A DNA stretch of 28,040 nt. Origin: a virus. Taxonomy: Duplodnaviria; Heunggongvirae; Uroviricota; Caudoviricetes. The stretch's first letter is position 1. Every line of letters starts with the position of its first letter. The stretch lies in the IMG/VR virus record IMGVR_UViG_2778261689_000008, positions 1 to 28,040 of that record, one strand, 5' to 3'. The position numbers and the translations under genes were made by a program. The notes below the pieces were generated by a model, which searched no databases, was not told where the DNA came from, and saw nothing but the letters and a program-made list of their open reading frames with translations. This document shows positions 24,465 through 28,040 of the stretch, piece by piece.

Positions 24465-24507
24465 GCTTCACCTCCGCAGAGGTCAAACGCTAGATGCAAA
24501 GAATTGC

Positions 24508-24626
24508 AGGTGCATTTCTGCATCTGTGAAGGGAGAAGAGAGTTTGGATTGTATGTGCGCATAAACGTCCCCGTTTAGCGCAGAAGTCACCAGAGTTGTT
24601 CAGGCTCCGATGACATGATTATGGCG
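24508..24626. repeat. 119-bp direct repeat, copy A (upstream of ybcN)
   Basis: About 110 of 119 positions identical to 26508-26626 with no indels; contains a near-palindromic 18-mer (24508-24525) and a 10-bp-stem hairpin (24557-24581). Confidence 0.85.
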
Positions 24627-24651
24627 AGTTGATTATCGCAAATCAAAGGTT

Positions 24652-25008
24652 TTAATTGTGCTTTATTCCTTCAAGCGTTGCCTTCATACCAACCAAAGAA
24701 ATGTTTAGCTCTCCAACTTTCTCAGGGCTATATAATTCAGAATGAAGCCAATATTCTGATTTATCTAAACATCTTTTAGCCAGCTCTCGATCAAAGTCTA
24801 CGACTTGGGAAGACGCTTCATACCAAAGCCTATAAAGTTTTTCTTCTTCGTTTGGGTTATTAGGCTCACCACGTTTTAATTTTTCAGTATATAAAATTGT
24901 TGAACAAATCGCAGGAGTTAATCCAGTGATTGCCCTCTGCCGCAGATCGGATTTGTTTGTTATCCACCCTAACAGACGATCTCCCATCCATGTGATAATT
25001 GTATCCAT
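24652..25008 (-). CDS. AT-rich orphan protein, 118 aa, no recognised family
   Basis: Track ORF, visibly AT-rich relative to flanking phage genes; GAAGGG 9 nt upstream of the ATG. Confidence 0.55.
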   Translation of the reverse strand: MDTIITWMGDRLLGWITNKSDLRQRAITGLTPAICSTILYTEKLKRGEPNNPNEEEKLYRLWYEASSQVVDFDRELAKRCLDKSEYWLHSELYSPEKVGELNISLVGMKATLEGIKHN

Positions 25009-25469: not shown

Positions 25470-26078
25470 CTACTGTAATCGATCCGAACGTAAATGCGGC
25501 AAAACTCGACTCCACTTATCATCCTGCCACGGCCGGAATTTTACATGCGCCGTTTCTCTGGCAAGGATTGCTCGCGCCTTGCTGAGTATCAGGGGATATT
25601 CCTGACTGATAGAAGTAAAGCGACCGGCTTCGCGGTGCTCCGCAACCTGAAGAAGTGGAGTAACGTTCTGGCAGGCGATTAACATCGTATCACTTGCTCG
25701 CCATAACCAGGCGAGTGTGCAAAGTTCGTTATCAGTGAATTGTTTTGTGATTGGTGATTGTTGAACTTCTCGATCGAGAATATCCAGCACCCAGCGGCGG
25801 AATTCTTTGGCCACAGGAGTACGAGCAAACATGGCGATCAAATGGGCTCCGCGAAGGCTAAATACTCGAGACTCCTGCATTCCACGAGGGGTGGTCACTT
25901 TGACCACCCTTGTCATCATATCTGTGAATTCATCTGAGTGCCGAGAGTAAATGCGCTGAACTGCTTTATCGTCCGCATATTCCAGTGCTAAACCAACTTC
26001 AGTGGCAGTAAGCCAAATTCTGTTATTGTGGCAAATCGGGGTAAACGTCGTTTTGTGGAATGCTAATTGAGTAGTCAT
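25470..26078 (-). CDS. Bro-N / antirepressor-like protein (tentative)
   Basis: 202 aa; the N-terminal half (FHKTTFTPICHNNRIWLTATEVGLALEYADDKA...) resembles Bro-N/KilA-N antirepressor domains. Confidence 0.55.
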   Translation of the reverse strand: MTTQLAFHKTTFTPICHNNRIWLTATEVGLALEYADDKAVQRIYSRHSDEFTDMMTRVVKVTTPRGMQESRVFSLRGAHLIAMFARTPVAKEFRRWVLDILDREVQQSPITKQFTDNELCTLAWLWRASDTMLIACQNVTPLLQVAEHREAGRFTSISQEYPLILSKARAILARETAHVKFRPWQDDKWSRVLPHLRSDRLQ

Positions 26079-26233
26079 AGTATCACCTCATCAGGTTAAC
26101 CATCACCACCAACGACGCCAATCGACTGGTGGTGAACTGTGTAAGGTTGGCGTAACCGGCTACTCAAACCCGGCGCTTCCGAAGAAGCCCTCACACAGCC
26201 CACCATAATTTGGGCATAGCCGTGCTTAGCGCA

Positions 26234-26256
26234 CAAAAAAACCGCTTAACGCGGTA
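26234..26256 (-). terminator. Intrinsic terminator-like hairpin with U7
   Basis: Minus strand: ACCGC-GUUAA-GCGGU followed by UUUUUUUG; lies between the small hydrophobic ORF and the Bro-N-like gene. Confidence 0.4.
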
Positions 26257-26341
26257 TGCGTTGAGTAGTATCCCGGGACGCCAATCCCGTGTGCCGATTT
26301 TGCGGCAACGCACAGAATATAGCGCCGGATAAATCATGTCG

Positions 26342-26431
26342 TCAACCCCAGTAAATGGACACCATGATGATCACAGCCATAGCTGCTACAACAGTTACAA
26401 CTACCTCAGGCCAAAACATAACGATTTCCAT
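26342..26431 (-). CDS. Small hydrophobic peptide, 29 aa (trimmed from the 82-aa track ORF)
   Basis: MEIVMFWPEVVVTVVAAMAVIIMVSIYWG with AAAGGTGAT immediately before the ATG; the longer track ORF would start inside repeat B, which is non-coding in copy A. Confidence 0.35.
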   Translation of the reverse strand: MEIVMFWPEVVVTVVAAMAVIIMVSIYWG

Positions 26432-26507
26432 ATCACCTTTAGCCGCCAGACGAATAGAGACTCCCAATTCTGGCTGTCGAAGTAAAACACCGAATGTAAA
26501 AAATCGT

Positions 26508-26626
26508 AGGTGCATTTCTGCATCTGTGAATGGAGATGAGAGTTTGGATTGTGTGTGCGCATAAACGTCCCCGTTTAGCGCAGAAGTCACCGGAGTTTTT
26601 TAGGCTCCGATGACAATATTATGGCT
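26508..26626. repeat. 119-bp direct repeat, copy B (exactly 2000 bp from copy A)
   Basis: See copy A; the hairpin (26557-26581) and the near-palindromic 18-mer (26508-26525) are conserved without change. Confidence 0.85.
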
Positions 26627-26709
26627 TTTTTATTTCTAAATTCAAAACTTGAAAATATTAAGATTCGCTTTTAAATCAACCCTAAACAACTGAAGATAAC
26701 ATCTGATAG

Positions 26710-27669
26710 TCAGCTAATTGCAAAGATATTAAAAATAACTTTAGGGAGTGCGAAAGATGAAATAAAAAGCACAACCATAAAAATGGCATGCTTAATAAAT
26801 GATGAGCTTGTAAAAAAAGCTCCTCCCTTGCTAATTCCTGCCATAAAAACAAAGATAAAGCTAATTAAGCACGACCATATCACTAACAAAACTGAGATTG
26901 ACATGCTTAAAGACATATCGCGAGAAAATACGTTTACTGAAATAGAAATGAAGGTAAAGAAAGAAGCAAATAAAGCAATGACACCCAGCATTGAGTTCCT
27001 TGCTGTAATTACTTCCGATTCAAAGCTTTTAACTTTCTCATGTATATCTTTTTCAGCATTTGATAATGTTGCATCAAATTGCTCAATCTTTGCAGTTTGC
27101 TGAGATAATGAAGACATTACCTTACCTATTTTTCTTTTAGTATCATTAATATTCTTTTTGCTCTTATTCAACTCTTGCGAAAAATTGGTTAGTTGATCAT
27201 TGATATTTTTCCAGAGGATGTTATCAATATCACTTTTTGTATATTTTTTTACATTCTCTTTATTAAAAGAAATTGTAGATTCAGAATTATTATTAACAAA
27301 GTAATTAGATAAAATGGCATTAGAGACAGTATTATCCATCACCGGCACAGTTGCTTTTGAACTGTATTTTATAGCTTCATGCAACATTTCTTTTTCATTA
27401 ACAAAAAGAGAGGTTTTTATTAAGTTTTGTGATGCCGCGTCTTTGATAGATATACTTTCCCGCTCTTTATTTGAAGCTGTTGCAGTTTTATTATCTATCT
27501 GCAAATTACTAATTTTTTGCACCCCTCCTGTATACGTAGATGTACTATTCGATACTTGTGAATTAGAATAAAGTGAATGATGCGCAGTTCTTTTTGCCAT
27601 GTCATCGTTGACTATAGCATTATTTTTTGCAGTTCTTTTTATATCCTTTTTATTATCATCCTTATTCAT
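26710..27669 (-). CDS. AT-rich protein, 319 aa: Asn/Ser/Lys-rich coiled-coil N-terminal region plus three C-terminal transmembrane helices; candidate exclusion/abortive-infection effector
   Basis: Track ORF; strongly AT-rich; GAGGTG RBS; C-terminal hydrophobic segments LGVIALFASFFTFISISVNVF, SISVLLVIWSCLISFIFVFMAGI, AIFMVVLFISSFALPKVIFNIFAI; 14-bp gap to the upstream ORF. Confidence 0.65.
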   Translation of the reverse strand: MNKDDNKKDIKRTAKNNAIVNDDMAKRTAHHSLYSNSQVSNSTSTYTGGVQKISNLQIDNKTATASNKERESISIKDAASQNLIKTSLFVNEKEMLHEAIKYSSKATVPVMDNTVSNAILSNYFVNNNSESTISFNKENVKKYTKSDIDNILWKNINDQLTNFSQELNKSKKNINDTKRKIGKVMSSLSQQTAKIEQFDATLSNAEKDIHEKVKSFESEVITARNSMLGVIALFASFFTFISISVNVFSRDMSLSMSISVLLVIWSCLISFIFVFMAGISKGGAFFTSSSFIKHAIFMVVLFISSFALPKVIFNIFAIS

Positions 27670-27683
27670 TCAGCCACCTCACA

Positions 27684-28040
27684 TTACTGAATTTCATTCA
27701 CTTTACTTAAAAAGGCTTTTTTTGTTTTTTCTGCGGTATATTTATCTTTAAATATAAAACTCTCGATTGTATTCACATCGATCTGTTTCACTAGCATTGG
27801 TTGTTCTCTGACAATATCATATCCTGACATAATCGACAAATGACAATTAAATATGGACTGCTCAAACTCGAATTTTTTATTATACATTAAATTAATATCT
27901 TCAATTATTTCGCTATCATTCTGCATGTTGTTACTAAGATAGTTTTTAACAATCTCTTTGTTTGGGTTGTTGTTTAATTCCGCCTTAACGGCCACCAAGC
28001 CCTGAGAGATCCCCTCATAATTTCCCCAAAGCGTAACCAT
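27684..28040 (-). CDS. AT-rich hypothetical protein; N-terminus may lie beyond the window edge
   Basis: Track ORF reaching the last base of the window; Asn/Lys/Ile-rich; operon-like spacing with the 319-aa gene. Confidence 0.5.
   Translation of the reverse strand: MVTLWGNYEGISQGLVAVKAELNNNPNKEIVKNYLSNNMQNDSEIIEDINLMYNKKFEFEQSIFNCHLSIMSGYDIVREQPMLVKQIDVNTIESFIFKDKYTAEKTKKAFLSKVNEIQ

Follow-up and report, generated by a model that had tools for sequence, protein, structure and literature searches.

What do the two genes encode that lie at the strongly AT-rich end of the window, by which we mean the whole stretch of 28,040 nucleotides analysed here, and do they form a unit with a role of its own in the prophage that carries them? 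The GC content of the last three 500-bp bins (26501-28000) is 0.35, 0.29 and 0.31, against 0.40-0.61 (mostly 0.44-0.61) in all the other bins, which agrees with an earlier note on this DNA that the composition here is unlike the rest of the prophage. The same profile dips to 0.40 at 501-1000 and at 24501-25008, where a 118-aa ORF lies on the minus strand (24652-25008) and has no Pfam match; both regions may hold further accessory genes of the prophage. We refer to the two AT-rich genes, in their order of transcription, as gene A and gene B, and to the pair as the cassette.

The gene pair and its disruption in the source genome

Gene B is the 319-aa ORF described previously, at 26710..27669 on the minus strand. 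The 14-bp intergenic spacer (27670..27683, minus strand) and the Shine-Dalgarno sequence GAGGTG (27675-27680, minus strand, 5 nt before the gene B ATG), which had also been noted, were read directly from the sequence. Gene coordinates of other loci gave a similarly tight spacing, of about 10-20 bp, and the two genes are translationally coupled through this spacer and its GAGGTG, with gene B following on the end of gene A. The upstream gene had been taken for an ORF that runs off the window, and this reading had to be given up. Alignment to the intact locus of E. coli L9 (L001:13085-13750), where gene A encodes a protein of 221 aa (WP_021526100.1), showed that only the 3' remnant of gene A, codons 117-221 and the stop, is present in the window (27684..28001, minus strand), while the last 39 bp (28002..28040, no strand assigned) are the end of an IS4-family element of the ISVsa5/IS10 type, with 100% identity to annotated IS ends. 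These are the ends of an "IS4-like element ISVsa5 family transposase" in more than 1,100 plasmid records including NC_002134, and we take the sequence to be the IS10 end of Tn10. When 26600-28040 was searched by megablast against 5,426 complete E. coli genomes, the cassette part (query 1-1402 only) matched 21 genomes, with homology to these uninterrupted loci ending at window position 28001, and 28002-28040 gave multi-copy matches in 1,044 genomes. The junction at 28001/28002, which falls on the first base of gene A codon 117, was common to none of the complete E. coli genomes searched. The listed ORF of 118 aa at this edge consists of 13 IS-derived codons joined to gene A residues 117-221, and since its first 13 codons come from the IS, the ATG at 28040 is an artefact. 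The IS end probably also explains why the window, and the contig, stops at 28040. Thus, in the source genome gene A is split by an IS10/ISVsa5-type element and gene B is cut off from the promoter-like element of the cassette (see below); because gene A is split, the cassette is probably inactive there, and this interrupted copy should not be counted as functional.

The full-length gene A protein was modelled by AlphaFold2 with a pLDDT of 89 and a pTM of 0.87, and is predicted to be a cytosolic protein of 221 aa with a duplicated beta-alpha-beta-beta-beta-alpha sandwich fold. The product of gene B falls into three parts, namely a disordered, hypervariable, Asn/Ser/Lys-rich tail (residues 1-144; 27238-27669, minus strand), a heptad-patterned helix (residues 145-222; 27004-27237, minus strand) and a near-invariant three-helix membrane domain (residues 223-319 and the stop; 26710-27003, minus strand). 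Hydropathy placed hydrophobic segments at about 225-250, 254-283 and 289-319, and the AlphaFold2 model, built from a 21-sequence alignment, gave helices at 145-251 (single and unbroken), 254-281 and 289-315, so that both methods agree on the three C-terminal hydrophobic helices proposed earlier. The pLDDT was 77-92 across most of 145-319 and below 50 at residues 1-140, which have no secondary structure in the model and are of low complexity (N 14%, S 13%, K 12%). Heptad-compatible windows were found from about residue 154 onward into TM1, and the heptad helix of ~145-222 continues directly into TM1. The N-terminal part had been described as Asn/Ser/Lys-rich and probably coiled-coil; its composition is as described, but the first ~140 residues are predicted to be a disordered tail without a coiled coil, and the coiled-coil-like character is predicted for the stalk at ~145-222. 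In the family alignment (A1) all of the 53 invariant columns lie within D199-P309 and the N-terminus is hypervariable. A pore-lining polar stripe was looked for among the invariant Ser, Thr and Asn residues; their helical-wheel resultant was 0.40, compared with a random expectation of ~0.32, and we do not claim such a stripe. We infer an N-in topology from the 225-residue hydrophilic, Lys-rich N-terminal part, which has no signal sequence, and the product of gene B would then sit in the inner membrane, its disordered tail in the cytoplasm and its helix of ~80 residues running on into the first of three membrane helices.

Two known types of membrane protein were considered for gene B and rejected. 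The appearance of TM1 had suggested a CorA-type channel; such channels are recognised by a Pfam CorA domain, a GMN motif and two C-terminal membrane helices, a description that gene B does not fit. Class I holins are proteins of ~100 aa with three membrane helices, encoded in the lysis cassette, whereas gene B codes for 319 aa with a cytoplasmic N-terminal part of 225 residues, lies far from the holin and endolysin genes of the prophage and has no holin match in Pfam or PHROGs.

Place in the prophage, spread and selection

The host element is a lambda-like prophage. In the loci L001, L033 and L034 the order on one strand is an O-like gene, P, the 221-aa gene, the 319-aa gene, a gap of ~630 bp and a Bro-N/P22AR_C gene, followed by ybcN, ninE, rusA, Q, lysis genes and head genes, and the window is collinear with this order. 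It had been suggested that the remaining genes of a larger system lie beyond 28040. This finds no support: in intact loci the unit is exactly two genes of 1.64 kb in all, and the part that corresponds to the DNA past 28040 holds the remainder of the 221-aa gene and then the replication genes P and O. On its other side, between the cassette and the Bro-N/P22AR_C gene (25470-26078), we noticed an unannotated ORF of 82 aa with a GTG start and a hydrophobic C-terminal stretch (VVVTVVAAMAVIIMVSIYWG) at 26342-26590 on the minus strand; its GC content is normal and it has no RefSeq annotation in the matching genomes. Between this ORF and the Bro-N/P22AR_C gene, Rfam models detected an isrK Hfq-binding RNA (26235-26307, minus strand, 58.7 bits), a C4 antisense RNA (26125-26210, minus strand, 74.8 bits) and, below threshold, C4 a1/b1 targets (26270-26322, minus strand). 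This region (26125-26322), which also holds a terminator-like hairpin ACCGCGTTAAGCGGT followed by a T-run, looks like an antirepressor control module of the P1 immI or Gifsy-1 type.

The 3' part of P is present in 3,496 of the 5,426 E. coli genomes, while the cassette is found in 21 of them. Almost all of the P matches start at query position 35, so that cassette carriers have their own version of the 34 nt at the end of P (L001 13903-13936, just outside the window), unlike that of ~3,500 other E. coli genomes with this P gene, and the P protein has 240 aa in cassette-carrying prophages as against 233 aa elsewhere. One of the recombination boundaries of the cassette is marked by this stretch. 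We compared the slot after P in five other sampled prophages, and found there ren alone, ren with emrE and ybcK, ren with two hypothetical genes, one hypothetical gene (in this prophage a HEPN gene lies past the antirepressor gene) and, in a prophage remnant, an inverse autotransporter gene. The slot after P is thus a variable accessory site, usually held by ren, whose place the cassette takes. In E. coli 2014C-3057 (L052 179-975) a HEPN-domain gene and a neighbouring hypothetical gene lie directly downstream of the P22AR_C antirepressor gene; they are more of the variable cargo of the same region.

Homologues of gene B form 26 clusters at 90% identity, all of them from Enterobacterales or from metagenomes. 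In all 24 loci for which sequence upstream of gene B is present, gene A is its immediate neighbour there; the hosts range from E. coli to Yersinia and Erwinia, and the count takes in loci from IMG/VR as well as a diverged pair from Yersinia (hhalign probability 99.9%, E 2e-34). In every context examined the upstream gene codes for 220-221 aa, and the upstream proteins are homologous to one another, with 35-63% identity and without gaps. The surroundings of the pair differ from host to host. It was found after ninB in a prophage remnant of Citrobacter, after O/P in Kosakonia, near Dam, Exc and an integrase gene in Erwinia, before Q in a Yersinia prophage, stand-alone near icd in Scandinavium, stand-alone in Leclercia, and, at a further locus, abutting an integrase gene next to ompW. 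These contexts show that the pair moves as a unit between phage and non-phage settings. In every host the GC content of the cassette is 31-35%. A -10-like box (TATAAAAT, TAGAAT or TATACT) is conserved ~35 nt upstream of the gene A ATG in seven of seven aligned contexts, as a consensus match only. Behind gene B a terminator is clear in just two loci, L006 and L009, and none is clear in the E. coli version. The pair is rare and patchy among the complete E. coli genomes, and no copies were seen in the phage isolates or plasmids searched. A moron in the sense of Hendrix and colleagues is present in some and absent from other related phages and differs in composition from its flanks, both of which were found here; it also has a promoter and a terminator of its own, and on these the observations are the -10-like box and the terminators just given. 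The cassette is a self-contained, horizontally mobile two-gene accessory unit ("moron") of Enterobacterales temperate phages.

We estimated pS and pN by the Nei-Gojobori method against the E. coli gene. For gene B, pS was 0.74-0.89 (saturated) and pN 0.11-0.21 in the TM region (223-315), 0.58-0.86 and 0.35-0.47 in the stalk (145-222), and 0.65-0.87 and 0.53-0.67 in the N-terminal tail (1-144), where pN is about equal to pS; for gene A as a whole pS was 0.73-0.80 and pN 0.35-0.45. By these estimates the membrane domain of gene B is under strong purifying selection, and because its low pN goes with saturated pS, its invariance is due to selection over a long time and not to recent transfer, while the sequence of the tail is essentially unconstrained. 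The presence of the gene pair in 24 loci, the saturated synonymous divergence and the strong amino-acid conservation together show that gene B is not a chance ORF. The cassette is a real, selectively maintained and uncharacterised two-gene unit.

Relatives of the two proteins

No specific family had been recognised for this locus earlier, and our searches came to the same result, as neither protein had a significant match in Pfam, NCBIfam or PADLOC. PADLOC-DB v2.0, which includes RexAB, Kiwa, Zorya, the CBASS/Pycsar TM effectors, Rst and PD, matched neither. When PADLOC was run over 21 members of the gene B family and 17 members of the gene A family, it gave nothing beyond scattered coiled-coil noise, with one or two members per model. 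Those to JetC, PDC-M43B, gop and others (one or two of the 21 gene B members) were set aside as coiled-coil or low-complexity noise, since a match to the near-invariant region would have been made by every member. The sole PHROGs matches of the two proteins were phrog_25335 and phrog_24110, both of function unknown. Sequence searches of solved structures with gene B returned only coiled-coil noise (keratin, gp26, GCN4), those with gene A returned nothing even with a 53-sequence profile, and fold searches yielded generic folds only. Both protein families are undescribed.

The family of gene A reaches much further than the cassette. When 1.84 billion representatives were searched exhaustively with an HMM, 1,011 of them matched at E<=1e-3 and 408 at <=1e-10, nearly all of 220-250 aa and matching end to end. 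The family maps to phrog_24110 and to phrog_22817, likewise of function unknown, and ten sampled members had no Pfam or PADLOC match; a scan of reference genomes with a narrower gene A alignment gave four MAG loci only. Distant homologues, from metagenomes and from Desulfobacterales/Proteobacteria MAGs, stand at the head of tight operons of soluble proteins. Three of these operons have three genes (L013 396-2196, L016 3551-5304 and L017 1543-3457). The third gene encodes a HEPN domain in L013 (24.8 bits against a Pfam gathering threshold of 22) and has a weak HEPN match in L016, and in L017 the second and third genes match PADLOC PDC-M32A (3e-6) and PDC-M32B (2e-5); L014 and L015 gave weak PDC-M32A matches. 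L011 adjoins an integrase gene and L013 a GemA gene. The L013, L016 and L017 operons may represent an undescribed modular system, and taken together these loci suggest that the gene A family is one conserved front-end protein coupled to differing downstream genes. Conflict systems are typically built in this way, from a shared module and exchangeable partners, and we have counted this in favour of a defence reading of the cassette.

A further neighbourhood was seen on an AT-rich metagenomic contig (L032 5878-9504), where an SDH-type (PF01972) protease, a gene A homologue, a 312-aa coiled-coil/TM protein and an Mrr_cat/NA-iREase1 nuclease are encoded in a row, with RhuM and DUF4143 ATPase genes close by; it looks like a defence island. 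By eye the 312-aa protein could be taken for a homologue of gene B, but hhalign gave a probability of 7%, and we regard it as analogous in architecture only.

Gene A has also been picked out by machine learning. Table S10 of the DefensePredictor study (Science 2026, PMC13092281) lists it as a "Predicted novel defense gene", in the instance WP_224204944.1 (NZ_CP083585.1 3764650-3765315) of cluster WP_021526100.1, which is the same gene as gene A; the coordinates are those of our E. coli match H19. The cluster has a mean log-odds of 4.99 (minimum 4.23, maximum 6.92) against a stringent cutoff of 4, its Table S10 entry records no homology or structural hit, and Table S6 gives 6 of 16 units scoring 4-6 as validated (PMC13092281). 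An accession search placed gene A neither among the cloned units of Table S6 nor among the validated systems DS-1 to DS-45, which lowered plating or plaque size when cloned, and gene B accessions were absent from the table entries searched (PMC13092281). The flag on gene A is a prediction and not a validation. Neither the arrangement as two genes nor the membrane partner, the wider family or the interruption by the IS is described in the paper (PMC13092281). A literature search by accession found no mention of the cassette in full texts.

Possible functions of the cassette

That the locus combines a soluble part with a membrane effector in a defence or exclusion module was the main proposal of the earlier note. 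As a candidate function it is the best supported among the readings considered, by the mobile AT-rich cassette with its promoter-like element, the coupling of distant gene A relatives to HEPN and PDC-M32-like genes, and DefensePredictor. Our preferred explanation, to which we would give a little less than an even chance, is that the cassette is an anti-phage defence or exclusion system with gene A as sensor or regulator and gene B as membrane effector. It rests on the strict co-occurrence of genes A and B, their mobility, the low GC content with the promoter-like box, the selection and patchiness described above, the gene A family and the DefensePredictor listing. In such a system gene A would sense a cue of infection, or act as a regulator, and control gene B; gene B would oligomerise through its coiled-coil stalk, and its membrane domain would perturb the inner membrane, by damaging or gating it, so that the infected cell is arrested (abortive infection) or the incoming phage blocked, as is thought for lambda RexA/RexB.

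A soluble component with a membrane effector is an architecture of a known kind. The classic example of a membrane effector activated by a cytosolic sensor is RexAB, which like the cassette is a prophage two-gene unit with the soluble protein first and a polytopic inner-membrane protein second. However, we found no sequence or fold similarity and no PADLOC or Pfam match; RexB has four membrane helices and is not known to have a coiled-coil stalk or a disordered tail, and the place of rexAB is the immunity region whereas the cassette lies after P or elsewhere. Kiwa, too, is a defence system of two genes, the membrane protein KwaA and the soluble KwaB, but the cassette has no PADLOC Kiwa match, the gene order of Kiwa is the reverse and KwaA has four membrane helices. 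With the PDC-M32 and HEPN operons the cassette shares a gene A homologue at the head, followed there by PDC-M32A, PDC-M32B or HEPN genes; its own proteins match neither model, however, and those operons consist of three soluble genes without a gene B homologue, PDC-M32 itself being only a candidate PADLOC system. Lambda ren occupies the same slot directly downstream of P in lambdoid prophages; it is unrelated in sequence and a single gene of ~96 aa, whereas the cassette is AT-rich, 1.64 kb long and found at other positions as well.

A broader proposal, which we hold only tentatively and think rather unlikely as it stands, is that gene A represents a large unrecognised family of small cytosolic sensors or adaptors, for whose more than 1,000 clusters (at 50% identity) Pfam, NCBIfam and PADLOC have no model, and that this family is the shared front end of a modular anti-phage system in which the effectors can be exchanged. 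The cassette would be the membrane-effector branch of a new defence superfamily; the effector in prophages of Enterobacterales would be the coiled-coil membrane protein with three helices, and in other phyla HEPN nucleases or PDC-M32-like proteins would take that role.

The cassette could also be a superinfection-exclusion device at the membrane in which gene B, like P22 SieA, T4 Imm and Kiwa KwaA, keeps phage DNA from entering or senses the machinery that injects it, with gene A as regulator or effector and with survival of the cell. We consider this improbable. The strongly constrained polytopic membrane domain would fit a specific, conserved membrane partner in host or phage, the hypervariable cytoplasmic tail could reflect an arms race, and the cassette is carried by a prophage and has a promoter-like element; yet it shows no similarity to known Sie proteins or Kiwa, the known single-protein Sie systems work without a soluble partner, and the pairing of gene A relatives with HEPN-type genes suggests that gene A acts upstream of a toxic effector and is not the effector itself. 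An equally low probability attaches to the proposal that the pair serves the phage's own lytic cycle, for example in modulating the host membrane, anchoring replication at the membrane or setting the time of lysis, and is expressed from pR with O, P and the nin genes. In its favour, the pair follows O/P directly and reads the same way in E. coli and Kosakonia, stands just before Q in Yersinia and takes the place of ren in the early-right operon, and behind gene B the E. coli version has no clear terminator. On the other hand, the pair also occurs at the ends of prophages beside integrase genes, and by itself in chromosomes without nearby phage genes, has its own conserved promoter-like box and is missing from all but 21 of the 3,496 E. 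coli genomes with a P gene of this type, and the prophage already has a complete holin/endolysin/spanin set.

Least probable of all is a toxin-antitoxin-like addiction module or host-fitness (lysogenic conversion) factor, with gene B as a membrane toxin or membrane-function protein and gene A as its antidote or regulator: two tightly coupled genes, soluble first and membrane second, in an AT-rich, mobile and patchily distributed unit would suit it, as would the label "Yip1 family protein" that one NCBI record gives to a gene B homologue, but Pfam supports neither Yip1 nor any toxin family, the source genome tolerates a disrupted gene A beside an intact gene B (a point against a simple antitoxin role that IS polarity on gene B weakens), and, with many toxin-antitoxin modules serving in defence themselves, this reading overlaps the preferred one.

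Should the preferred reading, anti-phage defence by a sensor or regulator and a membrane effector, prove right, the cassette would add two undescribed protein families to prophage-encoded immunity and provide a compact, 1.64-kb E. coli model of a cytosolic sensor that controls a membrane effector. It also offers a concrete and easily cloned case for a machine-learning prediction that is not yet validated. Since the gene A family is large and appears to be coupled to different types of effector in distant bacteria, the characterisation of one member could annotate more than 1,000 orphan protein clusters.
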